A DNA stretch of 64,000 nt from Alphaproteobacteria bacterium (GTDB lineage Bacteria > Pseudomonadota > Alphaproteobacteria > RF32 > CAG-239): positions 15,224 through 79,223 of the forward strand of contig JAZSQL010000054.1 of assembly GCA_045537965.1 (NCBI GenBank). The letters run 5' to 3'. This document shows positions 6,865 to 64,000 of this stretch, piece after piece. The translations under genes and the position numbers were made by a program. Every line of letters begins with the position of its first letter. The stretch's first letter is position 1. The notes under the pieces were generated by a model that saw only the letters and a program-made list of their open reading frames with translations, had not been told where the DNA came from and ran no database searches.

Positions 6865-8118
6865 TTAATAAATAGGAAAATCTTCACAAAGTTTTACAAC
6901 TTTTTTTGCTACTTCTGCAATTACATCTTCCTGTTTATTCGTACCCAGAGCATCTATTACATCTGCTATCAAATTACCTATTAATTCAAATTCCTTTTCC
7001 TTAAATCCTCTAGTAGTACCAGCTGGTGTACCAACTCTAATACCAGAAGTAATCTTAGGTGGCATAGGATCAAAAGGAATAGCATTTTTATTGCAAGTAA
7101 TATGGGCCTTATCCAAAGCATCTGCCACTACATCACCTGTAACATTTTTAGGACGTAAATCAACTAACAATAAATGCGTATCTGTGCCTCCTGACACCAA
7201 ATCAAAACCTCTTTTTTTCAAAGTTTCACCCAAAACAACCGCATTATCAATTACTTGTCTGGCATAACATTTAAATTCATCACTCAAATCTTCTTTAAAA
7301 CAAACTGCTTTAGCTGCAATAACATGTTCTAAAGGCCCCCCTTGCGAACCAGGGAAAATAGCAGAGTTGATTTTCTTAGCTAAATCTTCATTATTAGTTA
7401 AAATCATACCGCCACGAGGACCACGCAAAGTTTTATGTGTTGTCGTTGTAACAACATCGGCATATTTTAAAGGATTAGGATGAACACCTCCTGCAACAAG
7501 ACCAGCAAAATGAGCCATATCAATCATTAAATATGCATTTACCTTATCTGCAATTTTTCTAAAACGATCAAAATCAATTCTTCGTGGATACGCTGACCCA
7601 CCAGCGATAATCAACTTAGGACTATTTTCTAAAGCCAAACGCTCAACTTCATCATAATCAATCAGTCCATCTTCTTTTCTAACACCATAAGCCACCGCAT
7701 TAAGCCATTTACCAGAAATCGAAACCTTTGAACCGTGTGTCAAATGTCCACCAGCATCAAGCGACATTCCCATAATTGTATCATACGGTTTTAATAAAGC
7801 CAAATAAACTGCTGTATTAGCTTGGCTACCTGAATGAGGTTGAACATTGGCAAATTTGGCACCAAACAACTGCTTTGCTCGCTCAATTGCTAAATTTTCA
7901 ATTCCATCAACAAATTCACATCCATGATAATAACGTTTTCCTGGATAGCCCTCTGCATATTTATTAGTTAAAATAGAACCTTGCGCTTCCATAACTGCAT
8001 GAGAAACTATATTTTCAGATGCAATCAATTCTATCTGTTGCTGCTGACGCTTTAATTCTTTTTGGATAAGTTGATAAATATCATTATCTTCAATTTCTAA
8101 GTTCTGTATAAAATCCAT
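6865..8118 (-). CDS. glyA: Serine hydroxymethyltransferase
   Basis: PLP-lysine motif [14 protein letters not shown] and full-length SHMT similarity. Confidence 0.95.
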
Positions 8119-8132
8119 TTTCTATTCCTCAA

Positions 8133-8558
8133 TTATCCTAACAAGTCAATCCTGCGACAATGTCTTTCACCATTAGAAAAAGGAGTCGCTAAAAAGATAT
8201 CAAAGTACCGTAATACTTCTTCTTTAGTTTGAACTCTTGCTCCAAAAACCGCCACATTTGCATTATTATGTTCTCTAGCTAACGCAGCAACCTCATTATT
8301 ATAAAGCAACGCTGCTCTAATCCCCTTATGTCTATTAGCTGCAATAGATATACCAACACCAGTTCCACAAATCAATACACCCATATCAGCTTGTCCACTA
8401 TTAATAACATCAGCCATCTTATCTGCAATAACAGGATAGTCACACGATTCGCTTGAATAGGTACCAATATCAAACCAATCAATATCTTGATAATTATTTT
8501 TTAAAAACTCTTTTAATTCAAACCCACCATGATCTGAACCTATTGCTATTTTCATCAA
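8133..8558 (-). CDS. rpiB: Ribose-5-phosphate isomerase B
   Basis: RpiB/LacAB family with motifs MKIAIGSDHGGFELK and CGTGVGISIAANR. Confidence 0.88.
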   Translation of the reverse strand: MMKIAIGSDHGGFELKEFLKNNYQDIDWFDIGTYSSESCDYPVIADKMADVINSGQADMGVLICGTGVGISIAANRHKGIRAALLYNNEVAALAREHNNANVAVFGARVQTKEEVLRYFDIFLATPFSNGERHCRRIDLLG

Positions 8559-8638
8559 TCACCTCATACAAAAAATTATAAACTTTCTCTATCATACAAC
8601 AAAGTTGTGATAAAAAAACAAATTTTTAAAAAAATATA

Positions 8639-8666
8639 TTGACGTGTGAAAAAATTATTGTATATA
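8639..8666 (+). promoter_or_regulatory. Candidate sigma70-type promoter for the tRNA-Cys/tRNA-Asn operon (TTGACG, 16-nt spacer, TATATA)
   Basis: -35/-10-like hexamers about 35 nt upstream of the tRNA-Cys 5' end. Confidence 0.4.
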
Positions 8667-8701
8667 TAGAGGCACCGATTGAGAGAACGGTAACCATGAT
8701 T

Positions 8702-8776
8702 GGCCGGTTGGCAGAGTGGCTCATGCAGAGGACTGCAAATCCTTGTACATCGGTTCGATTCCGGTACCGGCCTCCA
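8702..8776 (+). tRNA. tRNA-Cys (anticodon GCA)
   Basis: Cloverleaf with acceptor stem ggccggt/accggcc. Anticodon stem gagga/tcctt with loop cuGCAaa. Encoded CCA. Confidence 0.9.
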
Positions 8777-8791
8777 AAATACCGTTTTTAT

Positions 8792-8866
8792 TCCGGCTTA
8801 GCTCAGCGGTAGAGCAATCGGCTGTTAACCGATTGGTCGCCTGTTCGAATCAGGCAGCCGGAGCCA
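8792..8866 (+). tRNA. tRNA-Asn (anticodon GTT)
   Basis: Acceptor stem tccggct/agccgga. Anticodon stem atcgg/ccgat with loop cuGUUaa. T-loop ttcgaat. Encoded CCA. Confidence 0.9.
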
Positions 8867-8871
8867 AAAAA

Positions 8872-8905
8872 AAGACCTTAGCTTTACAGTTAAGGTCTTT
8901 TTTTG
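8872..8905. terminator. Bidirectional rho-independent terminator (tRNA operon and convergent prfC)
   Basis: Hairpin aagacctta...taaggtctt flanked by an A-run on one side and a T-run on the other. Confidence 0.75.
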
Positions 8906-8945
8906 TTGTTCCTTGCCACTATCTTTGACGATGAACCAGAAAACG

Positions 8946-10538
8946 TTATTCTTTAACTTTTGCAAATTTTATCTTAGAAAAATCTTCTTGAGCTTTATTT
9001 AAGTGCCAAGCATTACGCGCTAAAAACACCAAAGCTCCATCATTATCTTCTGCAATATTAAGCCTATTATCATCAACAAATTTATTCAACTCCTTACTAT
9101 CATCTGCAGAAATCCACCTCGCTGTAAAATACTGTGTTGGTTCAAACATAACAGGCAAACCAAATTCATTTTTAATACGATCAGCCATAACTTCAAACTG
9201 TAAAACACCAACCACTCCAACAATCCATTCAGCACCAACAACAGGTTTAAAAATACTTGCTCCCCCCTCTTCTGCAATTTGTCTTAAAGCATCACCCAAA
9301 TGCTTAGACTTTAAAGGATCTAAAGCTCTAGCTGATTTTAGTAATTCAGGAGCAAACGAAGGAATCCCTGTAAACGTTATCTTTTCCCCCTCAGTCAAAG
9401 TATCTCCTATTCTAAGTTGTCCATGATTGGGAATTCCTATAATATCTCCAGAATATGCATCTTCAGCTAGTTCTCGTTCTTGAGCCAAAAACATTACTGG
9501 CGTTGGAACCTTAATCACCTTACCTGTTCTAACTTGATGTAATGTCATACCTCGCTTAAAATGTCCCGAACAAATTCGCATAAAAGCGATTCTATCACGA
9601 TGCTTTGGATCCATATTAGCCTGAATTTTAAATATAAAACCACTAACCTTAGTTTCGTCAGGCTTAACTTCTCGCTCAATCGCTGGATGAGGGCGAGGAG
9701 TTGGAGCAAAAGAATGCAATCCTTCCAAAACCTCTTTAACACCAAAGTTATTAATAGCACTTCCAAAAAATACAGGTGTCAAAGTACCTGCTAAATAAGC
9801 ATCTAGATCAAATTTAGGACAAAGTTCGCTAATCATCATAACATCTTCACGCAACTTTTCAACCTGATGCGCTGGTAACAATTCATCTAACTTTGGATCA
9901 TCAAGCCCACTACATGTTTCAATTACACTATTAACTGTTGACTTGTCTCCTGATTTATTCATCAAAATCATACGATTATTCAAAATATCATAACACCCCT
10001 TAAAATCCTTACCTGATCCTACAGGCCAACTTGCAGGTGTAACATCTAACGCTAGCGTTCGTTCAATTTCATCTAACAAAGCAAACGGATCTTGCCCCTC
10101 TCGATCTAATTTATTGATGAACGTTAAAATAGGAACATCACGTAAACGACAAACTTCAAACAATTTTTTAGTTTGGGTCTCAATACCTTTTGCCGAATCA
10201 AGAACCATAACGGCCGAGTCAACAGCTGTCAAAACACGATATGTATCTTCTGAAAAATCTTCATGCCCTGGCGTATCTAAAAGATTAAATGTTATATTAT
10301 CATATTCAAAAGTCATAACAGATGATGCAACAGAAATTCCTCGTTCTTGCTCAACCTTCATCCAATCAGAATGAGCTCGCCTACTTTCTCCTCTAGCTTT
10401 TACAGCACCTGCTTGTTGAATAGCACCTCCAAATAACAACAACTTTTCTGTCAAAGTTGTCTTACCAGCATCTGGGTGCGAAATAATTGCAAACGTTTTA
10501 CGTGGATTAACCTTTGTCATTTTCCAATTCCTTAACAA
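8946..10538 (-). CDS. prfC: Peptide chain release factor 3
   Basis: GTPase motifs AIISHPDAGKTT, DTPGHEDF and NKLD. Length of 530 aa fits RF3. Confidence 0.95.
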   Translation of the reverse strand: MLRNWKMTKVNPRKTFAIISHPDAGKTTLTEKLLLFGGAIQQAGAVKARGESRRAHSDWMKVEQERGISVASSVMTFEYDNITFNLLDTPGHEDFSEDTYRVLTAVDSAVMVLDSAKGIETQTKKLFEVCRLRDVPILTFINKLDREGQDPFALLDEIERTLALDVTPASWPVGSGKDFKGCYDILNNRMILMNKSGDKSTVNSVIETCSGLDDPKLDELLPAHQVEKLREDVMMISELCPKFDLDAYLAGTLTPVFFGSAINNFGVKEVLEGLHSFAPTPRPHPAIEREVKPDETKVSGFIFKIQANMDPKHRDRIAFMRICSGHFKRGMTLHQVRTGKVIKVPTPVMFLAQERELAEDAYSGDIIGIPNHGQLRIGDTLTEGEKITFTGIPSFAPELLKSARALDPLKSKHLGDALRQIAEEGGASIFKPVVGAEWIVGVVGVLQFEVMADRIKNEFGLPVMFEPTQYFTARWISADDSKELNKFVDDNRLNIAEDNDGALVFLARNAWHLNKAQEDFSKIKFAKVKE

Positions 10539-10629: not shown

Positions 10630-12720
10630 TTAAAATAACCCCAACACCCCTTGTGTAGATTGCGACGCTAACGACAAAGAATTAATTGCCAATTGTTGTC
10701 GTGTCTGTAACATTAAATAATTTGCTGTTTCTTCATTAATATCTGCCAACACTAACTTATCAGCACCGATTTCTAAAATATCAATCAACGCATCTATAAA
10801 ATCTTGTCTTGTTTGAACAAGTTGAGACTTATTACCAAACATACACGAATATTCTCTCATCTTAGCAATCGCCTTTGTTAACTCATCAATAGATTTTTCA
10901 ACAGATTTTATATCATTCCAATTATTCATTTCAATTCCTAGAGCATTGTACCTAACATCTACCCCATTTATAACAATCTTATGCGAACGTATTTCATTGA
11001 GAGTTACTGTTAATGCATCACCATAAAGTAAATTTATCCCTTGATATGAAGTATCCTTAATTAATCTATTATATTCTGTTAAAATATCATGATACTGCTT
11101 ATCATATAAAACTCCACCATCATCATGTTCTCTAACAATAACACTTCCTCCTTTCCCCACATAACCATCAACATCAGGAATATCAATAATATTAGTACGC
11201 ATATAACCAGCTATAAAGTGATCAGTATATTTAAATAATCCACCATAAGGATCATCTGCATTAAAATTACCTTCCATATACTTACTACTAAATGTTAAAT
11301 CTTTAAGATTAACAATTTTAACAGAACCATCTGCATTTATATCACATATAATCCCCACAGCTACTTTACTTCCGTCATAATCATTTGCTGATCCCCATGT
11401 TTTATCTGTATACATAACATCACCTATTCTTGGAACAGAATCACTATTATTCAAAGACGAAGGAATAAAACAATTTTTTAAAAGCTTAAAACATCTAACT
11501 TGAGCACCTTCACTTAAACCATCATTACCACGGTAACCATTACTAACATTAAATACCCAAAAAGTACTACCTACTCCTTCAGAAGAAGACCAATAATAAT
11601 CTTGCATTTTTTCTGCAATATATGGATCTTTGTTTGCCAAAACATCTAATGCATCATTTATTAAGCGCATATTATTACCATCAGCACCGTCCGCACCACA
11701 AAGATCTCCATATATAACCGATGTATCAGTTCCGTACATTTCCATCAGTTCTCCCATAGCTGGTAAATACCATTCTCCTTGTCCAAACTCTCCTTCTTTA
11801 TTACCAACATAAAATTGATTTGCAGCACTAGCCAATAAAGCTATTTCCCCTATTTGATCAACAATAGCCTTAGTATAAATTTCTCCTTCATACAATAAAG
11901 CATCATCAGCACTGGCTAAACCTGTACCTAACACTTTAACATCAGCATTAATTTCATCTGTACTATCAATATTAAATAACGCTCCTTGCATCGCTAAAAT
12001 ACCATAACCACAGGCATCTGCATTGTTTATTTTTATCTTAGACGCATCAACAATTGTATCTTCACCCATAGCTACAATTGCAGAACTAATATAATTACTA
12101 CTAGATGTAAAATTAAGTTGCAAATTAGATATATTAACACCTTTTGCTAATGCCATAATACCAGCACCACTGCCTGAAATATCGTTAATTGTAATTGTAT
12201 GACCATTACCATCTATTACTACATTTTCTACATCAATTACCAAACTATCTATCAAATACAAATCATCAGCTAATACAACTTTTGCATCAACATTATTTAT
12301 AAGTGCATTTATTTCATCTACACTCATATCAGCAGTAATAACTGAATATCCTTCTTTTTCATACTCTACAATATCTTTAGTTATTAGATCAACCTCATCT
12401 AATTGTTTTGCTCTATAATATAACAACGCTTGCTCAGCAACAGTTTTTGCTTTTTCTAAAAAAGATATCCCTTCTTCAATACCAAGATTTGCAACTGAAA
12501 TTGTCTTAATAGTTTGCCCTATTGAATCTAATAATACATCCAAATCTTTCGCTCTATTAGTCAAAGAACGTGAAGAATAATAGCTCGATGCATTATCTAA
12601 CGCCGAACTAACCTTATTACCTGTAGATAAAGATTTTTGCGTCTTATCCAATTGTTCTTGAATCACTTTTAATGAGTGTAAATTAGACCGCATACTAAAA
12701 GTTAATGCTATTCTTTCCAT
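10630..12720 (-). CDS. Flagellin-like protein with a very large (~500 aa) central insert
   Basis: N-terminal region (SLSTGNKVSSALDNAS..SRSLTNRAKDLD) and C-terminal region (MFGNKSQLVQTRQDF...LMLQTRQQLAINSLSLASQSTQGVLGL) match the conserved flagellin N/C helical domains. The central region is Gly/Asp/Asn-rich and beta-helix-like (VIDGNGHTITINDISGSGAG). Confidence 0.55.
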   Translation of the reverse strand: MERIALTFSMRSNLHSLKVIQEQLDKTQKSLSTGNKVSSALDNASSYYSSRSLTNRAKDLDVLLDSIGQTIKTISVANLGIEEGISFLEKAKTVAEQALLYYRAKQLDEVDLITKDIVEYEKEGYSVITADMSVDEINALINNVDAKVVLADDLYLIDSLVIDVENVVIDGNGHTITINDISGSGAGIMALAKGVNISNLQLNFTSSSNYISSAIVAMGEDTIVDASKIKINNADACGYGILAMQGALFNIDSTDEINADVKVLGTGLASADDALLYEGEIYTKAIVDQIGEIALLASAANQFYVGNKEGEFGQGEWYLPAMGELMEMYGTDTSVIYGDLCGADGADGNNMRLINDALDVLANKDPYIAEKMQDYYWSSSEGVGSTFWVFNVSNGYRGNDGLSEGAQVRCFKLLKNCFIPSSLNNSDSVPRIGDVMYTDKTWGSANDYDGSKVAVGIICDINADGSVKIVNLKDLTFSSKYMEGNFNADDPYGGLFKYTDHFIAGYMRTNIIDIPDVDGYVGKGGSVIVREHDDGGVLYDKQYHDILTEYNRLIKDTSYQGINLLYGDALTVTLNEIRSHKIVINGVDVRYNALGIEMNNWNDIKSVEKSIDELTKAIAKMREYSCMFGNKSQLVQTRQDFIDALIDILEIGADKLVLADINEETANYLMLQTRQQLAINSLSLASQSTQGVLGLF

Positions 12721-12927
12721 ATTAAATTTCAGATATAATTTAAATACTCAATCAGTCTGAACATATCCTAAACAACATTTATCGTTAATTAGTTAGTTTC
12801 TTTTATCCACAATAACATCATAATACTACAAACAAAATATTATAATTTTTTACCAAAAAAATAAAATAAGCAAAAGAAAAGCCCCTCAATCAATACGATT
12901 GGGAGCTTTTTCTATTAAAGATTACAG

Positions 12928-13746
12928 TTATTCACCAATTTTATTACCTTCAGTATCATATTTTACTACTGTAGCATTACTTTGCAAAGATTTAATAATA
13001 TCTCCCATTGTCTTTTGTGCCAACATAGCCTTTAGCTGAGGTTCAATTTTTTCCAATGGCTGAGGTTTAGCATCTCTAATATCCTCAACCAAAATAACAT
13101 GATAACCAAATTGTGTTTTTACAGGTGTTTTAGTATACTGCCCTTTTTTCAAACTAAACGCTGCTTCTGCAAATTCTGGCACCATCATATCTTTAGTAAA
13201 ATAACCAAGTTCTGCAGGTTCTTTTGAATATTCCTTAGCTAATTTATCAAAACCACCTTCTTTTTGAAATTTAGCAATAACTTCTTTAGCTGTAGCTTCA
13301 TTTTTAACCAATATATGCTTAGCTTTAACCTCTTTTTCACCCTTAAAAGTATTTTTATAATCATCATAAAGTTTTTTAACAGCTTTATCATCTACTTTAG
13401 CTCTTACTTTTTTCTCTAAATAAATCTTGCGAGCTAATTCTTCTTTCAAACCTTTAAGTTGCTGTTTATATTCTGGTGTATCTTCAATTTTTTCTTTAGC
13501 AGCAGCCTGATAAACAATCTCGCCATCAACAAAAATATCTAATGTCTTAGCATAAAAATCATCAAATGACGTTTTTTCTTTAACAGCAGGATTCGCATCA
13601 TAAGCAACCTTAATATCTGCAACATTAATATTTTTACCATTAACAACTGCAGCTACACCATCTTTACCTGCAGCCAAAGCATTTGCAACTTGCAAAGTTG
13701 CCAAACCCATAACTACATAAGCCAAATATTTTTTATTCATTATCAC
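12928..13746 (-). CDS. Secreted parvulin-type peptidyl-prolyl cis-trans isomerase (PpiC/PrsA/SurA-like)
   Basis: Signal peptide plus PpiC domain (HILV...GGFDKLAKEYS...GYHVILVED). Confidence 0.85.
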   Translation of the reverse strand: MIMNKKYLAYVVMGLATLQVANALAAGKDGVAAVVNGKNINVADIKVAYDANPAVKEKTSFDDFYAKTLDIFVDGEIVYQAAAKEKIEDTPEYKQQLKGLKEELARKIYLEKKVRAKVDDKAVKKLYDDYKNTFKGEKEVKAKHILVKNEATAKEVIAKFQKEGGFDKLAKEYSKEPAELGYFTKDMMVPEFAEAAFSLKKGQYTKTPVKTQFGYHVILVEDIRDAKPQPLEKIEPQLKAMLAQKTMGDIIKSLQSNATVVKYDTEGNKIGE

Positions 13747-22759: not shown

Positions 22760-23734
22760 CTACTTAATAATTAAGCCACGTTTAGGAAAACTTTTACGTA
22801 TCCTTTTTAACAAAATTTTAGTTTGTTCATCAAAATTTCCATTTTTCTGAAAAATACGTAGCTCTTTTCGTCTTGCGGCTGCATTTGCTAAACCGATATT
22901 ACAATCAAGTCGCAAAAATTTCCACATATCAGCAGTATTAAAAAATGCGCTATATCCTCTCAAAAGCAAATCCTTAACCCAAGCCATTTCTGGTCGAGCA
23001 AACTTCTTTTCAATTGGAAGCTCTATTCTTTCTTGAGGTCTATAAATCTGCGCGATAACTACATTAGCCAATAATTTATCGACAGCATACGTTTGAGGTG
23101 AAAATACCTCAACATCAAACAATCTTGCCGAAAAATCAAGTCGCGGCACTTCGAAAAAAATAAAATCAATGTGCGGCAACATTTTAGGCAACGTCTGAGC
23201 AGCAAGAAGAGATAGCCCAACTCCTGTAATAACCAAAACTTTAGGCTTAGTCTTACATGGAATACTTCTAATTACTTGATTAATATCCCATATAATCTCC
23301 CGACTTGTTTGACCATAGGCTTGCTGATGATTCTTCAGAACCCAATCTTTAGAAAAACCAAGTTCTATCATACCATTCTCAAACCATTGAGCATTAGGAA
23401 TTTTTTGATTAAAACTCCCTTGCAGATTTCCTACCGTAACAAATTCAGGATATTTACCGTATTTATCACGATAGCGAACAGCAATTTCAGCAGCATAATC
23501 TAACGCTCTAGGACTTTCCCCAAAAACCAACATAATATCAGCTTCTGGAATGCTATCCATAGCAAATGAATGAACTTTGGAGTTATCCTCGCTCACAAAC
23601 CTAGAAAAATTACCACCACCATTCTTATGATCATTTTGAATCACATCAAGTAATGACAATGGATTATTTTCATTATAGGTGCACCAATCCTCCATAAGTA
23701 TCAAATGACGACAATCTTCTCTTGATAGAATCAT
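22760..23734 (-). CDS. Hypothetical protein, paralog of the adjacent upstream gene
   Basis: 324-aa ORF. Shares the LV.G...RA...AA...Y..G.YP and LANVV motifs with the 23731-24639 product. Its start overlaps that gene's stop (ATGA). Confidence 0.55.
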   Translation of the reverse strand: MILSREDCRHLILMEDWCTYNENNPLSLLDVIQNDHKNGGGNFSRFVSEDNSKVHSFAMDSIPEADIMLVFGESPRALDYAAEIAVRYRDKYGKYPEFVTVGNLQGSFNQKIPNAQWFENGMIELGFSKDWVLKNHQQAYGQTSREIIWDINQVIRSIPCKTKPKVLVITGVGLSLLAAQTLPKMLPHIDFIFFEVPRLDFSARLFDVEVFSPQTYAVDKLLANVVIAQIYRPQERIELPIEKKFARPEMAWVKDLLLRGYSAFFNTADMWKFLRLDCNIGLANAAARRKELRIFQKNGNFDEQTKILLKRIRKSFPKRGLIIK

Positions 23735-24639: not shown

Positions 24640-24784
24640 AAGCTTTTATTTTTTAAAATTAAACATAGGGAATTCATAATTATTAACTGGCATCTTTAAT
24701 ACAACACCTTTAGACAAAAATCAAGACAAAAATATTGTCATATAAACAAAACATGCCTACAATCTACAACAAGACAAATATAAA

Positions 24785-34060: not shown

Positions 34061-34160
34061 TTAAAACGATGCTAACTTGTAAAAAGTTCATTTTCAATTA
34101 AAAAATTTTTTTCAAAATTAAGATTGCATTTAAAAACAATTTGATATATACCAACAATCA

Positions 34161-35858
34161 CTAATAGTTATTGCTTCGTCGTCTAATGGTAGGACAGCGG
34201 ATTCTGACTCCGTCAATCTTGGTTCGAGTCCAGGCGAAGCAGCCAGCTTGGACAGGGCTAGCGGAAATTTTCGCTAGCCCTTGATTTTTAAGGCTTTCGG
34301 CGAGTTCGATTGATTTCATATACCCAATTTGTACATTTTCGTTATCATTTGCCTGTAACCTTTGTCCTGCAACGGTTTGCATCTGTTCGTGCGGCAACAC
34401 TTTATTTCCTTTCGGATTGTTAATATTTACAAATTCATTAAACGGAAATCTTAATTTGTAACTGATTACGCCTTCGGTCAAAGTAATCTTTTCAAATACA
34501 AATTTTAAGAGAAGTCTTTTCATTTCATAATTAGATGATTTTTCAAAAAAGTATCCTGCTTGTGTAGCAATATCCAATAGTCCTAAAATTGTATCATCAA
34601 AGCAGATATCTGCTTTTTCATGAGAAGCTATTTTCCTTTTAATGCGTTCTATTTTTAACTGTATATCGTTCCGTTTTGTATCAAATGACTCTCTATCCAG
34701 TTCACCATCAAGCCTTAAATCAAACAATGTATCCATCTTTTCTTTGAGTTTTTCTTGTTCACCTTTAAGCCTTTTAATCTCTTCGGAATTGAATTTTCTT
34801 TCAGATGCTTTGGCTGTTTTGAGTTCTTGTTGTAGTTCTGTTATAATATTTTCAGGTAGTCTTATACAATTTAAAATTGAGCTCACACGACTAGTAAACT
34901 CTTCTTCACGAATATACATTCTTGTTTTATCTTTGCGCCAGCATGCTACATAGCTGAATATTCCTTTTTTTAATTCACACTGACATATTTTGTTAGTTAT
35001 GCCACAAGTAACTAATCCACGAAAAAGAAAATTCTTTTCAGATTTTTTTGTACATTGTCCGCCTCTAATTGCTTTCTGTTTTTGGCATAAATCCCATAAT
35101 TCTTTGCTTACTATCGGTTTATAAACATGTGGCATAATGCCTCTTTTTGTGCGCATTTCACCATAATAAAAAGGATTTCCCAATATATTATGCATAGAAT
35201 TAAGACAAATCTCTCCGCCTTTGGCATTTCTTAATCCCATCATATTTGCATAATGTTGTAGCTCGGAAACACTTGTATTGCCCAAAGAATAGATTTCATA
35301 ACATTTGCGAATAATTACAGCTTCTGATTCTTTAGGACGGATAAACTTTTTTCCTCGTTCATCTGTATAATTTTCATATCCGATAGGAGCTTGTCCTGTT
35401 ATTTCGCCATTTCTATTCTTTTGTTCAGTAGAGCGACGAACATTCTCGGACAGTTGCAAAACGTAAGCTTTCGCTCCCATTACCGAGAAATCCCATCTCA
35501 TAATATCAACAGATGTAGATTTACTATTTAATACCATTCCCTCACGATAGAAATGAAGCTCAATTTTATCTTGTCGCATCAACTCATCAAGCAACACACT
35601 TTCTTTGAAACTTCTTTGTACACGGTCAACTGTATCAGCAACAATAGCTATGGTTTCTTTCTGTCTTTTACAAAAGTTTATCATTTCCATAAATTGTTTA
35701 CGCTGACCATGAGTAGAACTCTCAACGATTTCAAAGGTTTTGATAACTTCTAAATCTTTTCTGTCAGCATACTCATGTAAACGATTACTTTGAGCAAGCA
35801 GGCTCAAGCCTTCTTCCTGCATCTTCGTTGAAACACGGGTTAGTATTATTGCCTTCAT
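34161..35858 (-). CDS. Large serine recombinase (integrase)
   Basis: N-terminal resolvase catalytic domain (ILTRVSTKMQ with Ser nucleophile) plus a large C-terminal recombinase/zinc-ribbon/coiled-coil region. ORF as tracked reads antisense through tRNA-Gln; the true stop may lie earlier. Confidence 0.82.
   Translation of the reverse strand: MKAIILTRVSTKMQEEGLSLLAQSNRLHEYADRKDLEVIKTFEIVESSTHGQRKQFMEMINFCKRQKETIAIVADTVDRVQRSFKESVLLDELMRQDKIELHFYREGMVLNSKSTSVDIMRWDFSVMGAKAYVLQLSENVRRSTEQKNRNGEITGQAPIGYENYTDERGKKFIRPKESEAVIIRKCYEIYSLGNTSVSELQHYANMMGLRNAKGGEICLNSMHNILGNPFYYGEMRTKRGIMPHVYKPIVSKELWDLCQKQKAIRGGQCTKKSEKNFLFRGLVTCGITNKICQCELKKGIFSYVACWRKDKTRMYIREEEFTSRVSSILNCIRLPENIITELQQELKTAKASERKFNSEEIKRLKGEQEKLKEKMDTLFDLRLDGELDRESFDTKRNDIQLKIERIKRKIASHEKADICFDDTILGLLDIATQAGYFFEKSSNYEMKRLLLKFVFEKITLTEGVISYKLRFPFNEFVNINNPKGNKVLPHEQMQTVAGQRLQANDNENVQIGYMKSIELAESLKNQGLAKISASPVQAGCFAWTRTKIDGVRIRCPTIRRRSNNY
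34172..34245 (+). tRNA. tRNA-Gln (anticodon CTG)
   Basis: Acceptor stem tgcttcg/cgaagca. Anticodon stem gcgga/uccgu with loop uuCUGac. T-arm ggttcgagtcc. Encoded CCA. Confidence 0.88.
34240..34603. repeat. Left copy of a long imperfect direct repeat (tRNA 3' end, terminator and integrase 3' end)
   Basis: Aligns with 58152-58433 base by base, with scattered mismatches and an in-frame ~81-bp segment present only in this copy and bounded by gttcg. Confidence 0.8.
34255..34289 (+). terminator. Rho-independent terminator after tRNA-Gln; duplicated at 58166-58200
   Basis: Perfect 9-bp stem gggctagcg/cgctagccc followed by ttgattttt. Confidence 0.6.
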
Positions 35859-36083
35859 TTTCTAAAATCTCCTGTCGTAGCATTAATAAACATTTTGCAA
35901 AACCTATTAAATGCCTTGCACCTTGTTCTAATTGTGCATCCGATAAAGGCTCTGATGATATGTTCCGCAATGCTTCTTTTAATTTGGCTGTCATTTTATC
36001 TTATCTCCATGCAATCCTCAAGCCAAGGCATTGTTGTTTTTTATGCAAGGGCTTATTATACAAGCCCCTGCATAAAAGGTAAT

Positions 36084-36599: not shown

Positions 36600-36715
36600 T
36601 TTATTTTCCTTTCAAAAATTAAATTAGTTAAAAAAAGAGCATAATAATTCTGTATGGCATTTAGGCATCCCTTCACGCCATTTGGGTTAAAATTGTTGGT
36701 TTTGTTAGATTTTAG

Positions 36716-36955: not shown

Positions 36956-36966
36956 TGCAAGCCCCC

Positions 36967-37373: not shown

Positions 37374-39023
37374 ATGTCATGGATTAATATTAAAGATTAC
37401 CAATTTAAAGAAGATACTTATATGAGTGTGGAAAAAGTTGATGAAGCAATCCCCTCATTAAATCAAAACAATATTAAAAATTTTAATTTTAAATTTCAAA
37501 ATACTGTTATTGATAATCTTTTGGTAAGAGAATATGCAAAAAGTTTAGCAGAGCCTGTACAACAAGGCAATTTCATATATTGTGATAACGTAGAGCAACT
37601 TAAAGAATTTTGCATGTTGTTCATGATGCGACTATCAAAAGTTTTTTTGACACTTAAAAATCATAACATTGAAAATGTAGGTAATTCTATCAAAAATTTA
37701 ATGGCTTGTTATGATGAATATGTAGAAGAGACTGGAAATGATTGTAAAGCTTTTCAGTCTGTGAAGGAGTTCCTTTTTAGCCTTCCTTCTAAAGAAGAAG
37801 CTCCCATAACAATTAAGAATGAATATTTAGACCAATATTATTCTTATTATGCTGATGCACTAAAAACATTCTTGTCAATTTTAGCGACAATATTCAATTA
37901 CAATCTAAAACAGCCCACTTTATCTTCAAAAGAACTAAAAATATTTGAAAAAAAGGGATATACTCGCAACTTTATAGCCAATAATGAAATCAAATTAAAA
38001 AAGTTTTTAGCTGATTTTGATGAAGAATATTGCTTTGCAAAGCAAGAGCCTATCACAGGTTTTATACATAATTACGCAGATATAGAGCTAAAATCATTAG
38101 GCTTTAACAATTTGTGCTTACATTTGAAAAATATGAAAATCGGCTCAAATGAAGAAACTCTTCACTTATTTACGTTTATTGATTACGTAGATATTAGGAC
38201 AGTGATTTTTGAAAACTGTTGTTTTAGTGAAGCAGAGCATCTATCTTTAAGAAGCAAATCATTTTTGTTCAAAAATTGCACATTTAATTGCAAACTTCGT
38301 TATTGGGAAGCGAGTATTCCAAAAAACTTTCAAACAGTAATAAGTTTATTAAAATTTGAAAGCTGTACGTTTAATGATAGCTTTGAGGTTGATAAAATTA
38401 AAAAGGGATGCTATTCAGCTATTATCTTAAGAAATTGTACTTTTTCAGAGCGTGCAAACTTTTTACTATCTAATATCTCTAAATTGAAAGTTATTTTTAG
38501 TAATACAATCTTTGGTGGTAAAGTATCCTTTACAGATGTGAACTTTCATGATGGACAATTTTCTAATATCGTATTCCTAAACGAATTTAGAGTTAAGAAC
38601 GTTACCTTTACATCCCATATTGATTTCAAACAACTCATATTTTCTGCAAATGTTGTAAAGACTATGAGTAATTCTATTCGTTCATTTGTAAAATCATTAG
38701 AAGATAATGGGTTTAATGATTATGCCGCAGAGTTAGCTGAATTTTACTTAAATGACTTAAATAGTAGCAAAAATAAAGAAGAATTTGATATTGCTATCAA
38801 ATCTGATTGGGTCAATATTAAACAAGCTGCAAGAATTTTAGGGCTTTCATATAATACCTTGCTGACGATGAGAAAAGAAGACAAAGCTACCGGAATTATC
38901 AGAATTCCTTATATTGGTGATGGCAAAAGTACGAAATACTATTATCCGCTTCTTATTGCTTACAAAAGTAATGATATGGCTTTAGTTAAAAAACTTGAAA
39001 AAGAAATGAACAGCAAAAAGTAA
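37374..39023 (+). CDS. Pentapeptide-repeat (beta-helix) protein with an N-terminal unknown domain and a C-terminal excisionase/MerR-like HTH
   Basis: Residues ~280-430 show strict 5-residue periodicity with Phe/Leu at the centre (FENCCF, FKNCTF, FESCTF, LRNCTF, FSNTIF, VSFTDVNFHDGQFSNIVF). C-terminus IKQAARILGLSYNTLLTMRKEDKATG is an HTH_17-like motif. Confidence 0.6.
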   Translation: MSWINIKDYQFKEDTYMSVEKVDEAIPSLNQNNIKNFNFKFQNTVIDNLLVREYAKSLAEPVQQGNFIYCDNVEQLKEFCMLFMMRLSKVFLTLKNHNIENVGNSIKNLMACYDEYVEETGNDCKAFQSVKEFLFSLPSKEEAPITIKNEYLDQYYSYYADALKTFLSILATIFNYNLKQPTLSSKELKIFEKKGYTRNFIANNEIKLKKFLADFDEEYCFAKQEPITGFIHNYADIELKSLGFNNLCLHLKNMKIGSNEETLHLFTFIDYVDIRTVIFENCCFSEAEHLSLRSKSFLFKNCTFNCKLRYWEASIPKNFQTVISLLKFESCTFNDSFEVDKIKKGCYSAIILRNCTFSERANFLLSNISKLKVIFSNTIFGGKVSFTDVNFHDGQFSNIVFLNEFRVKNVTFTSHIDFKQLIFSANVVKTMSNSIRSFVKSLEDNGFNDYAAELAEFYLNDLNSSKNKEEFDIAIKSDWVNIKQAARILGLSYNTLLTMRKEDKATGIIRIPYIGDGKSTKYYYPLLIAYKSNDMALVKKLEKEMNSKK

Positions 39024-39163
39024 TAAGTTATTTAGACTTATTATAAATGTAGTAAATAGCAAATAAATTAAGTTGAACTTATAAATAAAATACTTGAAAT
39101 ATTAATAGGGATTAGATAGCATTTCTCTCAATAGATATTTTTTAATAAATTCGGAGAATGTAG

Positions 39164-41395
39164 ATGGCTGTATTAGAACAAAAAATCACTATTGAAGATT
39201 CTTGTTCTATTGTTAAAAAAGCAAAAAGTCCTTTTTCACCAATTAAGGAAGCTATAACAAATGCCATGGATTCTATTGTAAAAAGGCAAGAATCGGGTAT
39301 TTCGTTTATACCTAAAATATCCGTTATTTTAAACTTTATAGAAAAAAAAGATTTATATAATCCTGAAAATTCTAAATATTTGTTATCGTCAATTTCAATT
39401 GTTGATAACGGGGAAGGATTTATTCAAAAAAACATTGAAAGATTTAAAAATCTAGGAGAAAGAAGCAAAGGATTAAATAATAGAGGAACTGGTAAAGTAC
39501 AATTATTTTGCCGTTTTAAACAAATTGATATAGAAAGTATTTTCTATGAAGATAATAAATGGAAAAAATTTACATCTACATGGAAAAGAAATGGTGATTA
39601 TACAGACAGTATTTCATACATAGGTAAAGAAAATGATAACAAAACTACTGTAATGATGTCTTATTTAATCAATGATAAAGAACATGAATATTATGGAGAG
39701 TATTTAAAAGATATTGAAAATTTAAAAAGAGATATATTAAAAAATTTTTTATTGCGTTTATGGTTAGGCTCATCATCTACAAATCAGTCTATTGAAATAA
39801 AAACAATGATTAATGAGCATGAAAAAGATAGTTTTATTTATAACGAAAAAACAATACCCGTTCCTGATAAAGAAGATACTATTAAGATACATACACAAAA
39901 AGCTGATATTTATAAAGACACAAAAGGGAAAATAAAAGTAACATGGCTGTCAACAGAACCATCATATACTTTAAATTTTTATAGATTCAAGCTAAATGCC
40001 TCTGAAATTAATGAAAATGGAGTATATATTTGTAGTAAAAATATTGTTGTAGAACCTTTTAGCTTTTCTGCAGTAAAAAAAACAGCTAATTTTGATGGGG
40101 CGCGTTATATATCATGCGTAAGTGGCAATTTATTAGATGCATCAGATAATGTTAGTCAATCAGTGGAGAGTTTTAATTTCCCATTAAAAAGAGAAGTAGA
40201 AAAAGATTTAAAAGAAGAAACAGGAGAGTTGTTTAATCAAGAAAATATTTTTGTTTTTTGGGATGAGATAAAAGAAAAAATAAATTTAGTTTTAGAAAAA
40301 AATTATTCTGACATTCAGGGATTAAAAGAAAGTAGAGAAAAAGATATTTTAAAAATTGCTGCTCGTTATGGCATATCTTCTGATATTGTAGATGAAGCAG
40401 ATATAGAATTTAATGATACTGAAGAAAAAACTATAGAGAAACTTTTTCAAGCTCAAGCTCGTAAATTTGCAAAAGAAAATATAGAAATCCGACATACGTA
40501 TGAAGAATTAAATAATCTTGAGTTGCAAAACTTAGACCCTACAAGCAATGACTATAAAGACAAGTTTAGAGCTGTTTCTCAAAAGTTATTGCAAAAAATA
40601 CCTCAACAAAATAAGGATGAACTAACTCGTTATATCATTAGAAGGGATATGGTTGTAAAATTGCTTGGCTTGGCTCTCAAAAATGAATTAGCCATTCAAA
40701 AAGATTGGAAAGACAAGAAAGCTCGTGGTATCGATGTAAAGAGACAAAAGGAAGCTATTTTTCATGATTTGATTTTTAGAAGAAAAATGAAAGGTGTGCC
40801 GAATGATTTATGGATATTAAATGAAGAGTTTGTTCATTTTGATGGTTATTCAGACATAGAACTAGAGAATCTGGTAGTTAATGGTGAAAAATTATTGCAA
40901 GATAATATTGATATATATGAAGCATTGAAATCTGTAGGTATAGAAAAAGATACATACTTAAAACAACGTCCAGATATATTTTTATTTCCAGAAGAAGGGA
41001 AATGTATATTAATAGAATTCAAAGCTCCTGATGTTGATTTATCTGAGCATACAAACCAAATTTCAAGATATGCAACATTGATAGCAAATTATTCTCGTAG
41101 ACCTAAGCAATTTACACAATTTTTTGGTTTTTTAATTGGAGAAGAGATAGACTTAGTTAATTTAGATAGGTCTTTATGGAAGAAAGTTCCTTTTGGAAAT
41201 TATCGTATCTATCCTAATAAAGAAATATTATCTATAGGAGAAGTAGAAACAACTATAGCTAATATATATCAAGAAATTATACCTTTTTCTGAAATAGCTA
41301 AAAGAGCTAAGATACGAAATAAAAGTTTTGCTGAAAAACTAGGAATAGAAGAAAGTGAATTAGAAAAAATTCAAAATCTAAACAATATTCTTTAA
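39164..41395 (+). CDS. GHKL-family (Bergerat fold) ATPase fused to a C-terminal PD-(D/E)xK-like nuclease motif
   Basis: N-box EAITNAMDS, G1 box IVDNGEGF and G2-like NRGTGKVQLF near the N-terminus. Near residue 600, RPDIFLFPEEGKCILIEFKAPD matches the PD-x(n)-ExK pattern. GGAGAATG RBS. Confidence 0.65.
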   Translation: MAVLEQKITIEDSCSIVKKAKSPFSPIKEAITNAMDSIVKRQESGISFIPKISVILNFIEKKDLYNPENSKYLLSSISIVDNGEGFIQKNIERFKNLGERSKGLNNRGTGKVQLFCRFKQIDIESIFYEDNKWKKFTSTWKRNGDYTDSISYIGKENDNKTTVMMSYLINDKEHEYYGEYLKDIENLKRDILKNFLLRLWLGSSSTNQSIEIKTMINEHEKDSFIYNEKTIPVPDKEDTIKIHTQKADIYKDTKGKIKVTWLSTEPSYTLNFYRFKLNASEINENGVYICSKNIVVEPFSFSAVKKTANFDGARYISCVSGNLLDASDNVSQSVESFNFPLKREVEKDLKEETGELFNQENIFVFWDEIKEKINLVLEKNYSDIQGLKESREKDILKIAARYGISSDIVDEADIEFNDTEEKTIEKLFQAQARKFAKENIEIRHTYEELNNLELQNLDPTSNDYKDKFRAVSQKLLQKIPQQNKDELTRYIIRRDMVVKLLGLALKNELAIQKDWKDKKARGIDVKRQKEAIFHDLIFRRKMKGVPNDLWILNEEFVHFDGYSDIELENLVVNGEKLLQDNIDIYEALKSVGIEKDTYLKQRPDIFLFPEEGKCILIEFKAPDVDLSEHTNQISRYATLIANYSRRPKQFTQFFGFLIGEEIDLVNLDRSLWKKVPFGNYRIYPNKEILSIGEVETTIANIYQEIIPFSEIAKRAKIRNKSFAEKLGIEESELEKIQNLNNIL

Positions 41396-41436
41396 TTAAT
41401 AAGCAGACATAACCCTCCATATAGAATGTAAAAGAA

Positions 41437-41466: not shown

Positions 41467-41517
41467 GGCTATTTTCCTAGTATTTTATTTTGACTGTCTT
41501 ATGTGGCAAATATAAAA

Positions 41518-43982: not shown

Positions 43983-44309
43983 CTAATACTCATCAGCATA
44001 CATTATAGTCATAACTCGGTTGGTAAGTCTTGGCTTGCAAGCATTAGGCGAAAGGAAAAGGAAATTGTTGTCATAATAATCAATCTTCCAGAAAATCTTT
44101 TTGCCCTTAAAAGTAAATGCCCCGAAATCCTTTTCGCCATATGGGTTATTATTTTCATTGAAATCGTTGAAATTGCGGACTTTATTGATAATGGTTGTAA
44201 TATCATCATGAGTGTTGCTTCTGATACCTTCGGTTAAAATCAAAGTACCTAGCGAGGGATTGGCTCTGAAAGCATCATTTAGTTTGGCGATTTCTGATAC
44301 ATTATTCAT
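43983..44309 (-). CDS. Small protein resembling the DUF3768 family (recalled, unverified)
   Basis: Motifs NDAFR, NNPYGEKDFGAFTF.GKKIFWKIDYYD and LTNRVMTIMYADEY match my recollection of DUF3768 proteins found on plasmids and ICEs. Confidence 0.4.
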   Translation of the reverse strand: MNNVSEIAKLNDAFRANPSLGTLILTEGIRSNTHDDITTIINKVRNFNDFNENNNPYGEKDFGAFTFKGKKIFWKIDYYDNNFLFLSPNACKPRLTNRVMTIMYADEY

Positions 44310-44829
44310 TGCAACTATCCTCTAAATATAAGTTGAACATCAAATCCACCAAGCCTTCTTTGTCGTTGGCATAGTCCCAAACATTTTTTCCTTTGTTGTT
44401 TTTGATATCAGGGTCAGCATCGTTATTGATAAAAAACTCAATCAATCCCAAACGCATCATGGCTTGCGGATGATTTACAACCTTTATAAAAGCTGTATTA
44501 CCGGCATTGTCTTGGGCATTGATATCACTTCCGGCTTGAAGCAAAAGGTTCAAACTAGCAGGATTGCTTCGTTTCTTGGCGGCAATCATAAAAGGAGTAT
44601 CGCCGGAAATGTTACGAGAATGAACATCGCCACCGTGAGATAAGAAAAGCTCAATGACCTCGGGTTCATAGAACTCACGGCAGGCGAACATAAAAGGAGT
44701 GTAACCGTTAGAATTGTAGGGTTTGTTTACATCTGCACCATTTTCAAGCAAAGTCTTGATAGTTGCGAAGTCTTCGCTATAAAGTGCTTTCATTAAATCA
44801 TTATCGTTACTAACCATTTGAATCTCCAT
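44302..44829 (-). CDS. Ankyrin-repeat protein
   Basis: Four to five ANK repeats (NGADVN...GYTPFMFACR, GSDINAQDNAGNTAFI, NNDADPDIKNNKGKNVWDYA). Confidence 0.85.
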   Translation of the reverse strand: MEIQMVSNDNDLMKALYSEDFATIKTLLENGADVNKPYNSNGYTPFMFACREFYEPEVIELFLSHGGDVHSRNISGDTPFMIAAKKRSNPASLNLLLQAGSDINAQDNAGNTAFIKVVNHPQAMMRLGLIEFFINNDADPDIKNNKGKNVWDYANDKEGLVDLMFNLYLEDSCNE

Positions 44830-46780: not shown

Positions 46781-47302
46781 TTATTCCTTATAAATCACTG
46801 CACCATTATCTAAAAGTAGGTTTGCTATATCTATTTCTATTCGTTCTAATGCGATAAGAAGTGCTGTTTCTCGTTGGTAATTGAGCCAATTTACATCACA
46901 TCCTTTATCAATCAACATCTGAATTACATCTAGTTTTAGGTCATCAGTCATATTTTCGTTCAAAATTACTGACATTATCGCATTATAGCCAAATATATCG
47001 GTTTGGTTGATTTCGCTTCCTTGTTCGAGCAGATATTCAATCGGCTCTATGGTAGAGCAAAAGTAGCAAGCAACCAAGAAAAGTGTAGCTCTTCGGCGGT
47101 TTATTGGTGTGTTAATTTGGAAATTTTCCATTTCTATCATTTTTTGTATCTCATCAACGCAATCAATGCAAAGCTCCGCTTCGCTTTCATAATTAACCAC
47201 AGGAAACACCGGTGCGTTCTTCACTCGCTCAGCAATCTGTTCCATTTTCTTTTGCATTTCGGGGAATTCACCTAGAAGCCATTTGTTGCAAAAAATCGTC
47301 AA
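46781..47302 (-). CDS. Ankyrin-repeat protein
   Basis: ANK repeats (GSEINQTDIFGYNAIM, GCDVNWLNYQRETALLIA, LLLDNGAV). Confidence 0.75.
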   Translation of the reverse strand: MTIFCNKWLLGEFPEMQKKMEQIAERVKNAPVFPVVNYESEAELCIDCVDEIQKMIEMENFQINTPINRRRATLFLVACYFCSTIEPIEYLLEQGSEINQTDIFGYNAIMSVILNENMTDDLKLDVIQMLIDKGCDVNWLNYQRETALLIALERIEIDIANLLLDNGAVIYKE

Positions 47303-63027: not shown

Positions 63028-63816
63028 TTAAAAAGCTAAACCACACCGAACGTAGGTGCGGTAGTTCGTCTTATTGTTGTCGAGCATGGTGCCAGATATC
63101 ATGGCGAGATTCCACGCGGCATAGGAGCCGTACGCGGTGGAAGACCAGTAGCGGTAGGTAATGTCTAAAGCCGTTCCACCAGAGTTAGTGAGGGCGGTAT
63201 CTATGGTTGTTTGGTTATCATATATAGCTTTTAATTCTTTTAAACTAGGTAAGAACCAACTTCCTATAGGTTGTTCTCCTTCAGTTAAATTATAACAATA
63301 TCCTGGTGCATAATCACTAGAAGCATAATCTCCTCCTAAAGTCATAATAGTAGCGGTATTTTGTTTCCCTGTTGTCGTTTCTGTTAGTGCTGTACTCTCA
63401 GAGGTATAGTTAGTTAAACCTGCAATATCTTCCTGAACACTAGACCAAGCCATCATACTAGGAGCATCATTTAATCCAATAGCTAATCTACTTTCAGTAT
63501 CAAACACCACAGCTATTGGTGTTACTTTTCCGCTAGGTAAAGAAGATTCATCATAACAATTTAAATCACTATACAATATATCTCCTACAGCACAATTTTG
63601 AGGTTTGTTTGCTTCTATACCATCACTCGAACTCTCGCTCTCACAAAATACTTTATCTGTCTCAAAAGGACATTTAAGCATATTTTTTCCAGCACAATCT
63701 GTGGCTGTTTGTAAATAACCTAGATCTGCACAAGTTGGTATTTTTGTACAATCAAATTCAGCATAAGCTGATGAAGCTACAATTAAACTAGTACCTAAAA
63801 GCAAATATTTTTTCAT
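63028..63816 (-). CDS. Secreted hypothetical protein (start re-placed at MKKYLLLG with an AAGGAGATAAGG RBS)
   Basis: Signal peptide MKKYLLLGTSLIVASSAYA. Cys-rich N-terminal region and a GC-richer conserved-looking C-terminal region. Confidence 0.55.
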   Translation of the reverse strand: MKKYLLLGTSLIVASSAYAEFDCTKIPTCADLGYLQTATDCAGKNMLKCPFETDKVFCESESSSDGIEANKPQNCAVGDILYSDLNCYDESSLPSGKVTPIAVVFDTESRLAIGLNDAPSMMAWSSVQEDIAGLTNYTSESTALTETTTGKQNTATIMTLGGDYASSDYAPGYCYNLTEGEQPIGSWFLPSLKELKAIYDNQTTIDTALTNSGGTALDITYRYWSSTAYGSYAAWNLAMISGTMLDNNKTNYRTYVRCGLAF

Positions 63817-64000
63817 AACCTTATCTCCTTTATATTTTAATTTATAAATCTCATCCCAAAACGCTACAAAAGCCCTAGAAACTCTTGGCTTGCTCCCTCT
63901 ACAAAAACCAACGTTTTTGTAGAGGCAAAAAAGAGACATTTTAAAAAAAAAGAAATAAGAAAAACAAAAGAAGAATAACTTATTGAAAATATGTAATAAA

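Follow-up and report, generated by a model that had tools for sequence, protein, structure and literature searches.

A flagellin with a lectin-like outer domain from an uncultured gut alphaproteobacterium: an apparently locked member of a family targeted by diversity-generating retroelements

The flagellin gene and its outer domains

The DNA analysed here (the window) is a stretch of 64,000 nucleotides (nt) of contig JAZSQL010000054.1 from an uncultured bacterium of the Alphaproteobacteria, with a GC content of ~33%. It carries a flagellin-family gene (32% GC; Table 1) that was first noticed in a reading made without database searches, hereafter the sequence-only reading. That reading missed what is the remarkable feature of the family, namely that the lectin domain is the variable region (VR) of a diversity-generating retroelement (DGR) in sister species. 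The open reading frame (ORF) is real, lies on the minus strand and encodes a protein of 696 amino acids (aa), as had been proposed. The flagellin termini were also recognized correctly: the Pfam families Flagellin_N (aa 13-98) and Flagellin_C (aa 612-695) were found with 36.6 and 24.0 bits, against cut-offs of 26.6 and 23, the latter being a marginal pass. The length falls below the >1000 aa by which giant flagellins are defined (PMC6248924), and the label 'giant' was dropped.

At E <= 10, matches in NCBIfam were confined to the flagellin models PRK12688, PRK14708, PRK12687, PRK08869 and PRK12802. The long flagellin subfamilies PRK12688 and PRK14708, which we take to be alphaproteobacterial, matched the termini of the protein with 155-164 bits. 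Among solved structures, phmmer returned 'Flagellin A' of the Sinorhizobium meliloti filament (7sn9, E = 3.6e-14) as the best match, followed by the filament flagellins FljK/L/M/N of Caulobacter at ~1e-10 (E values up to 6e-10). The D0/D1 parts of the protein align end-to-end with these filament-forming flagellins, including the C-terminal ...LSLF. An AlphaFold model of the protein (mean predicted local distance difference test score, pLDDT, of 78.9) has long N- and C-terminal helices and central domains scoring 80-95, and Foldseek matched the model to the FljK/L/M/N filaments with a probability of 1.0 and E about 1e-4. A Pfam scan of the protein at E <= 10 gave no peptidase family, and hence no protease of the flagellinolysin kind.

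Between the termini lies an insert of about 430 aa (aa 106-535), somewhat shorter than the ~500 aa first proposed. Its claimed richness in Gly, Asp and Asn was borne out, the three residues making up 28.6% of the insert vs 17.7% of the termini. The AlphaFold model and Pfam together divide the insert into three parts, which according to the model are a beta-helix-like domain, a C-type-lectin-like DUF1566/Lcl_C domain and a third beta-rich domain. The beta-helix originally assumed for the whole insert thus holds for aa ~112-265, but not for the lectin-like and third domains that make up the rest. In the beta-helix segment Pectate_lyase_5 matches the window protein weakly (E = 0.67) and 17 of 53 aligned family members at E <= 1e-3; Foldseek gave weak matches to the fucoidan lyase FdlA, a pectin methylesterase and an SRRP adhesin. 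The lectin-like and third domains, modelled together, form one compact body (predicted template modelling score 0.86). The pLDDT of the third domain is 91-95 over aa 431-500 and drops to 50-75 by aa 530. Lcl_C/DUF1566 was found at E <= 1e-3 in 45 of the 53 aligned members, and a family profile matched the C-terminal domain (CTD) of Legionella Lcl (8q4e) with E = 1e-4 over ~40 aligned residues that span the VR segment. The suggestion of a flagellin with an adhesive central domain therefore receives some support, since a DUF1566/Lcl_C domain makes ligand binding plausible.

Nucleotides 1128-1247 of the window gene, encoding aa 376-416 at the end of the lectin-like domain, align to the VR of the relatives. 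The hypervariable core of this VR-equivalent segment comprises 27 residues (aa 382-408, positions 11497-11577). The window protein retains the complete scaffold (YWSSSE..W..G.R..VRCF), of which W377, S378, S379, E381, R397 and R409 are invariant and W388 and G395 near-invariant in the 53-sequence alignment. The variable positions alternate with these scaffold residues and reach a column entropy of about 3-3.5 bits; over the patch, the mean entropy is 2.44 bits vs 1.1-1.3 in D0/D1 and the remaining lectin domain.

The order of conserved motifs in the flagellin (positions 11131-11898, minus strand) is WYLPxxxEL, YWSSSE..VRCF, IGDVMYxD..VGI, while in a small DUF1566 protein encoded elsewhere in the window (63028-63939, minus strand) it is GDxxYxD..VG, WxLPSxxEL, YWSS..VRC. 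This difference in sequence suggests a circular permutation of the flagellin lectin domain, or alternatively a second partial domain. The small protein (303 aa) has a probable signal peptide from M42 and a C-terminal DUF1566/Lcl_C tail ending in ...YRYWSSTAYGSYAAWNLAMISGTMLDNNKTNYRTYVRCGLAF*, an architecture that is classical for a DGR target with a C-terminal VR. The window extends only 61 nt upstream of its gene. No template repeat (TR) for it was present in the window, and an exact-protein look-up gave no other contig. An exact look-up of P0126, which appears identical to the flagellin of the window, likewise had no result.

The flagellin gene is flanked on one side by prfC (8946..10538) and two tRNA genes, and on the other by genes for a PpiC-type peptidyl-prolyl isomerase (PPIase, 12928..13746) and SecA. 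Its reported isolation between prfC and the PPIase gene was upheld: a Pfam scan of the about 50 window ORFs of >= 120 aa detected no flagellar family, and tblastn with FliE, FlgC, FlgB and FlhB-like queries from a relative gave no match in the 64 kb. Because a hairpin with a T-run separates the PPIase and flagellin genes, the latter should have its own promoter. The sigma-28-like motif listed in Table 1 (background rate 0.008 per 250 nt) occurs in 4/4 conspecific copies and in 0/65 genes of relatives, and was set aside as evidence for a flagellar regulon. A 'GGAAAAGTTT' box, which is common mainly to paralogues inside a few genomes and has no consistent -10 element, was not used as evidence either; no sigma-54 motif was found.

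Table 1. Features of the flagellin locus in window coordinates.
Feature	Position	Strand	Basis
Flagellin-family gene, 696 aa + stop codon	10630..12720	-	ORF list; Pfam termini; 157 homologues
N-terminal D0/D1 helical segment, aa 1-105	12406..12720	-	Flagellin_N aa 13-98; model helices 8-33 and 44-104; aligns to 7sn9 and Caulobacter flagellins
Beta-helix-like outer domain, aa ~112-265, the part first read (VIDGNGHTITINDISGSGAG)	11926..12387	-	stacked short strands 147-263 in the model, pLDDT 81-93
DUF1566/Lcl_C (C-type-lectin-like) domain, aa ~275-420	11461..11898	-	Pfam, family profile, model
VR-equivalent segment, aa 376-416, YYWSSSEGVGSTFWVFNVSNGYRGNDGLSEGAQVRCFKLL	11474..11593	-	aligns to TRs and VRs of L001 and L003
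AT-rich stretch just downstream of the VR-equivalent	11386..11473	-	GC 0.28-0.32; best stem 5 bp with 1 GC pair
Third outer domain, aa ~431-530	11131..11430	-	motif PKIGDVMYxDKxWGSADDYDGSKxAVGI..DGSVKIxNLKDL; conservation in A1 and A2
C-terminal D1/D0 helical segment, aa 540-696	10633..11103	-	Flagellin_C aa 612-695; PRK12688/PRK14708 aa 541-695; aligns to 7sn9 and 8uxj
Hairpin + T-run after the PPIase gene	12885..12903	.	terminator scan and sequence reading
Sigma-28-like motif TAAA-N15-AACGATAA, 85 nt upstream of ATG; status uncertain	12779..12805	-	sequence reading

The flagellin family and its retroelements

A word-indexed search yielded 157 homologues, of which more than 100 are full-length (650-790 aa) with the same architecture, described by the Pfam combination PF00669 + (PF20585) + PF07603 + PF00700. 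Flagellin_N and Flagellin_C are present in 53 of 53 aligned members. The gene is accordingly an orphan, as it had been called, within the 64 kb, but not in a wider sense, since homologues of this architecture are numerous and there are often several per genome. When 1.84 billion cluster representatives were searched exhaustively, 716 matched at E <= 1e-30; roughly the first fifty listed match inside the central module, and many more share the flagellin termini only and carry other inserts. Scanning species-representative genomes produced 79 loci, all from metagenome-assembled genomes (MAGs) of uncultured Alphaproteobacteria or 'Proteobacteria'. Many of these are titled with the names of human-gut cohorts (Hadza, Nepal), one comes from deer rectum and some are labelled Azospirillaceae. 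The species of the window lies outside this set; its nearest relatives are P0002-P0005, at about 60% identity.

Paralogues amount to at least 8 loci in CAKQMD01 and about 10 in CALXTO01. Tandem flagellin arrays with up to three starts in 3.5 kb occur in L070, L077, L024, L027 and others, with up to ~10 loci per MAG, an unusual number of flagellins for a single genome. In L003, L013, L058 and L086 the homologous flagellin genes adjoin flgB-flgC-fliE and an flhB-like gene. The module formed by the lectin and third domains was also observed, at 40-50% identity, in large non-flagellin proteins of 1100-1700 aa (P0009, P0007, P0134 and P0196; loci L048, L054 and L059), with up to 5-6 matched stretches per protein and tandem copies in L048 and L059. 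Its occurrence both in flagellins and in these large, presumably surface, proteins implies that the module moves between protein types.

Genes for a reverse transcriptase (RT) and bAvd adjoin the flagellin gene in nine independent relatives (L001/L002, L003, L014, L017, L023, L038, L039, L047 and L052). Among them are the two nearest relatives on long contigs, L001/L002 (P0004) and L003 (P0003), where the flagellin gene lies 500-800 bp from a divergently oriented RVT_1 RT gene and bAvd. In the genome survey, RT and Avd stand beside 7 of the 48 loci with the lectin region, a lower bound as many contigs are cut. The Pfam scores are 68 bits for RVT_1 and 69 bits for bAvd, and the RT has the motifs IGNLTSQ and YVDD. 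The motif [LIV]GxxxSQ is characteristic of DGR RTs.

In these two nearest relatives, self-comparison of both strands revealed a copy of flagellin codons ~382-420, 114-117 nt long, on the RT strand at 43-44 nt upstream of the RT start. Such a TR of ~115 nt matches these codons in eight of the nine RT-linked relatives. In L001 the TR and VR differ at 24 positions, of which 23 are TR adenines; the single exception, a C, falls at the 3' end, the part in which the initiation of mutagenic homing sequences (IMH and IMH*) diverge. TR adenines likewise account for all mismatches in L047 (11/11), L023 (18/18), L038 (16/16) and L014 (17/17, plus one codon indel), for 16/19 in L052 and for 18/19 in L003 (plus one codon indel), while L039 has about 20 adenine mismatches in the core. 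For single loci, the binomial probability of such a bias lies between 3e-5 and 2e-9. Indels of whole codons opposite AAC are familiar from other DGRs (PMC5758913). The TR of L001 is rich in AAC/AAT codons, which have no mutational route to stop codons; its 23 diversifiable codons allow about 10^24 protein variants. The elements of the cassette follow the order TR-RT-Avd on one strand in all loci but L014, where RT and Avd (within 7760-9523) are on the plus strand and the TR (9523..9412) follows Avd on the opposite strand. Because RT and Avd are adjacent to the gene and TR and VR differ almost only at TR adenines, these elements are, as judged from their sequences, bona fide DGRs with the variable region inside a flagellin.

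The alleles of single species vary accordingly. Two samples of one species (L003 and L086) differ by 40 nt over 2.2 kb, with 28 of the differences in the 117-nt VR and 25 of these at TR adenines, and L001 and L087 show 23 VR differences, 22 at TR adenines. At the protein level, 15 of the 20 differences between P0002 and P0003 (97.3% identical) fall inside the 27-aa patch, as do 13/27 between P0028 and P0037 and 12/35 between P0030 and P0053. A few lineages are frozen, with patch differences of 0/45 for P0034/P0041 and 0/101 for P0035/P0058. On the strength of these comparisons, the flagellin DGRs of the relatives are judged to be active in nature.

In the genomes retrieved, no TR matches any VR of its own genome except the adjacent one. 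The MAG CAKQNT01 contains three flagellin paralogues without an RT gene within 10 kb (L006, L020 and L042). Their VRs match the L023-type TR of another species with mostly adenine mismatches (18 A and 2 other, 19 and 5, and 17 and 5, respectively), and L006 and L042 keep the hairpin described below; their sequences therefore suggest that the three are candidate remote (trans) DGR targets. A further peculiarity was seen in L003, where a 152-nt direct repeat (9613-9764 and 12285-12436, 98% identity) flanks the flagellin gene; a 43-nt sub-repeat (TTTTATGGACTGCTTCGTC.TTGTCACTCCTC...) occurs three times, perhaps as a REP-like or recombination element.

Where the sequence reaches far enough downstream, the RT-linked loci have a GC-rich hairpin of 4-10 GC pairs with a 3-5-nt loop, at a fixed offset of about 35-39 nt past the VRCFQ codons; the stem is less perfect in L003 and L038. 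The hairpin forms part of the coding sequence for a Gly-rich linker, and the GC content downstream of the VR is 0.43-0.63 in the linked loci vs 0.28-0.32 in the window. In the Bordetella and Legionella DGRs, a GC-rich inverted repeat downstream of the IMH is required for efficient homing (PMC5758913). By analogy, the hairpin of the relatives is taken to correspond to this inverted repeat.

The window copy and competing explanations

In the window itself, blastn-short and a repeat search over both strands of the 64 kb found no TR or second copy of the VR-equivalent, and tblastn with the RT and Avd of the relatives gave nothing better than E = 0.4. No GC-rich hairpin is present in the 90 nt downstream of the VR-equivalent (28-32% GC), the last 20 nt of which have 20% GC and which is followed by the linker SSLNNSDSVP. 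The differences between the window segment and the TRs of the relatives are not restricted to adenines and are largely C-to-T drift in an AT-rich genome. Three further conspecific contigs, from three samples, have the identical PPIase-flagellin-prfC arrangement. The four DNA copies, including that of the window, differ at a single nucleotide (nt 148) in 2091, with no difference in the VR. Similarly, seven protein variants from the 90% cluster each carry one to three scattered substitutions, all of them outside aa 371-420. Since cassette, hairpin and VR variation are all missing, the window copy appears not to be currently diversified, and it is best read as a 'locked' flagellin of fixed specificity within a DGR-targeted family.

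Downstream of the flagellin gene, the window shares the block rpiB-SHMT-mur ligase-nrdR-nusB-def with L001, which places the window gene in a chromosomal neighbourhood similar to that of a DGR target. On the upstream side, the expected place of the cassette, the two differ. A degenerate pattern for the cognate TR of the window VR had 0 matches in JGI metagenomes; the VR itself was also unmatched there, which shows that the species is absent from that collection. An NNY-codon mutagenesis footprint in the window VR was considered and dropped, because AT-rich codon usage gives the same picture.

We regard it as probable that the gene encodes a structural flagellin with a lectin-like surface domain, that the family is targeted by DGRs and that the window copy is locked. 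This reading builds on the domain architecture, on the DGRs of the relatives and on a window without DGR, hairpin or VR variation. The terminal D0/D1 helices would build the filament core in this uncultured, low-GC gut alphaproteobacterium, and the ~430-aa insert would present its three domains on the outside of the filament. The patch of aa 382-408, on its invariant scaffold, would be a putative ligand-binding face by which the filament could bind carbohydrate or another surface ligand multivalently. In sister species, the TR would be transcribed and then reverse-transcribed with adenine-specific errors; the cDNA would replace the VR, rewriting the AAC/AAT codons and thereby changing the binding or antigenic specificity of the filament. 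The species of the window would have lost the cassette and the GC-rich inverted repeat, rather than never having had a DGR, and would have kept a single specificity. A broader proposal, to which we give slightly better than even chances, is that a clade of gut Alphaproteobacteria has wired a dedicated DGR to its flagellin, with a rewritable lectin-like site of ~20 codons, and that the species of the window was locked after loss of the cassette.

Several observations weigh against this reading. Lcl_C (PF07603) reaches only 20.7 bits in the window protein, against a cut-off of 34.9. The identities of RTs and flagellins show no correlation (rho = 0.06, with paralogy as a confounding factor) that would favour loss of the DGR here over gain elsewhere, or the reverse. 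The four sampled copies are almost clonal, so that the missing VR variation has limited power against a rare or conditional DGR activity, and a DGR can reach targets at a distance of over 100 kb (PMC5758913). Finally, as the window has no flagellar gene, filament formation in this species is deduced from the relatives.

Among the alternatives, the one that survives best, though unlikely, holds that the patch is no binding site. The outer domain would then be an antigenic or phage-receptor face, the DGR of the relatives would serve escape from IgA or flagellotropic phages, and the window gene would be an ordinary fliC with an inert decoration. Outer domains of flagellins are classic targets of antigenic and phase variation, and no ligand or binding-site motif was identified; in addition, Lcl-CTD does not have the canonical Ca2+/carbohydrate motifs (PMC11162425). 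On the other hand, in the DGR variable proteins studied to date, a C-type-lectin or Ig scaffold binds a ligand through a surface made of the diversified residues (PMC5758913; PMC6328139). Invariant and hypervariable positions alternate strictly, which is the layout of a binding site and not of diffuse antigenic drift. Moreover, the species of the window keeps the domain intact with a frozen patch, so the domain should do more than vary.

A second alternative, which we consider improbable, is that DGR activity on the window copy continues, driven in trans by a cassette outside the 64 kb. The known reach of DGRs (PMC5758913) would allow this, the RT-less paralogues of CAKQNT01 may provide an example, and the DUF1566-tailed ORF 63028..63939 hints that the genome may have had other DGR-type targets. 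Against it stand the absence of VR variation in the seven protein variants and four DNA copies, as compared to 23-28 differences between alleles of sister species, the AT-rich 3' end of the VR-equivalent without a GC-rich inverted repeat downstream, and the lack of TR, RT and Avd in the 64 kb.

The sequence-only reading had suggested a surface or secreted effector of a host-associated-looking genome, exported by a flagellar or type III secretion-like route, or an FlgL-like paralogue; such an orphan non-filament protein (adhesin or effector) is the least probable of the explanations, for although the 64 kb are free of flagellar genes and the lectin-plus-third-domain module can work outside filaments, as its presence in P0009, P0134 and P0196 indicates, no FlgL model matches in NCBIfam at E <= 10, D0 and D1 align with and model onto filaments, the termini are kept throughout the family, the homologues adjoin rod and export genes, and flagellin genes are often unlinked to other flagellar genes, which makes their absence from the window weak evidence.

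Relation to known systems and biological meaning

Target proteins with DUF1566-type VRs constitute the 'CLec2 / category d' class, which accounts for 14% of the DGRs catalogued (PMC5758913). The DUF1566/CLec2 target LdtA of Legionella pneumophila (PMC5758913) has the same VR motif type (YWSS...W...G...VRC) and the same PF07603 domain. With the DGRs of this class the relatives share the AAC/AAT-rich TR, adenine-only differences, an IGxxxSQ RT, bAvd and a GC-rich repeat after the VR. Unlike in that class, the target protein is a flagellin, the cassette order is TR-RT-Avd and not target-avd-TR-rt, and the VR is internal (codons ~382-420 of ~700-730) and not C-terminal; the IMH and hairpin are consequently embedded in coding sequence, the hairpin lying inside the Gly-rich linker. 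The window copy differs further in having no cassette, hairpin or variation. The Mtd/Brt/Avd system of Bordetella phage BPP-1, the archetypal DGR, also resembles that of the relatives in its TR, adenine-specific mutagenic retrohoming, C-type-lectin-type scaffold, IMH and inverted repeat. However, the elements of the relatives are cellular and have no phage context, they are absent from the window, and the diversified protein is not a tail fibre but a subunit of a motility organelle that is present in thousands of copies.

The CTD of Legionella Lcl is C-type-lectin-like and binds glycosaminoglycans (PMC11162425). This adhesin domain (8q4e) is the sole solved structure detectably related to the insert, and the match spans the VR. 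In contrast to the flagellins, Lcl is a trimeric adhesin on a collagen stalk, secreted by the type II secretion system and not diversified by a DGR. The motif order in the flagellin is apparently permuted, with the GDxxYxD...VGI strands after YWSS...VRC instead of before it.

A conserved D0/D1 core with a large, function-adding surface insert is shared with flagellinolysins (PMC7643111), with the giant flagellins of Bermanella and Oleibacter (PMC6248924) and with the long flagellin subfamilies PRK12688 and PRK14708. The window protein differs from them by the lack of a protease domain, by its size of 696 aa and by an unrelated insert. Programmed hypermutation, as occurs in the relatives, is unreported for these proteins and for the PRK12688-PRK14708 flagellins.

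The classical example of flagellar phase variation is Hin inversion in Salmonella, which switches between fliC and fljB. Both that system and the DGRs vary the surface of flagellin and keep the polymerisation core. Hin recombines a few pre-existing alleles, whereas the relatives rewrite ~20 codons by means of an RT, with astronomically many possible outcomes.

A DGR survey from 2019 mentions 'flagellin' once in a list of target annotations, without detail (PMC6642488); no flagellin-target entry was retrievable from its supplementary tables, and flagellin is unmentioned in the reference survey PMC5758913. A full-text literature search, with most subscription journals outside its scope, found no other description of DGR-targeted flagellins. 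The family thus joins two known kinds of protein, DGR targets and flagellins, and the window gene is a new, apparently locked member of it.

Elsewhere in the window, a glycosylation cluster on the minus strand (47980-55480) encodes WavE, an NAD-dependent epimerase, a 723-aa GT8 protein, a cytidylyltransferase and GT2; it could serve lipopolysaccharide synthesis or flagellin glycosylation. A probable integrated mobile element occupies ~34160-47300 and 58150-58435, beside tRNA-Gln (34172-34245). It includes a serine recombinase gene (34161..35858), two large ORFs without Pfam match in a stretch of 27-28% GC (37374..41395), DUF7946/7947, a Phage_integrase fragment, an AAA_14/DUF4143 ATPase and two ankyrin-repeat ORFs (44302..44829 and 46781..47302). 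The flank at 34240-34603 is repeated at 58152-58434 (89-97% identity), next to further resolvase genes. Three consecutive ORFs at 22760-25477 (324, 302 and 230 aa) gave no Pfam match at E <= 1e-4.

Few bacterial surface proteins are as well studied as flagellin, which is also a major target of innate and adaptive immunity in the gut, and DGRs are, to our knowledge, the only known prokaryotic system of targeted protein hypermutation. The combination of the two means that a motility filament can double as a programmable surface for ligand binding or for evasion of immunity and phages. For DGR biology it adds a class of abundant, polymeric targets with an internal VR, in which the IMH and the recognition hairpin have to be accommodated within coding sequence, and it provides a natural scaffold for display of diversified binders at very high valency. 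The window copy forms an informative contrast by showing what a retired or fixed target looks like; the annotation 'flagellin' hides its lectin domain. If the proposed explanation is true, bacteria of this clade would carry an adaptive, massively multivalent adhesin, or evasion surface, of thousands of subunits on a rotating propeller, for which the species of the window would be a built-in comparator, and the system may bear on the host persistence of these poorly known gut Alphaproteobacteria.

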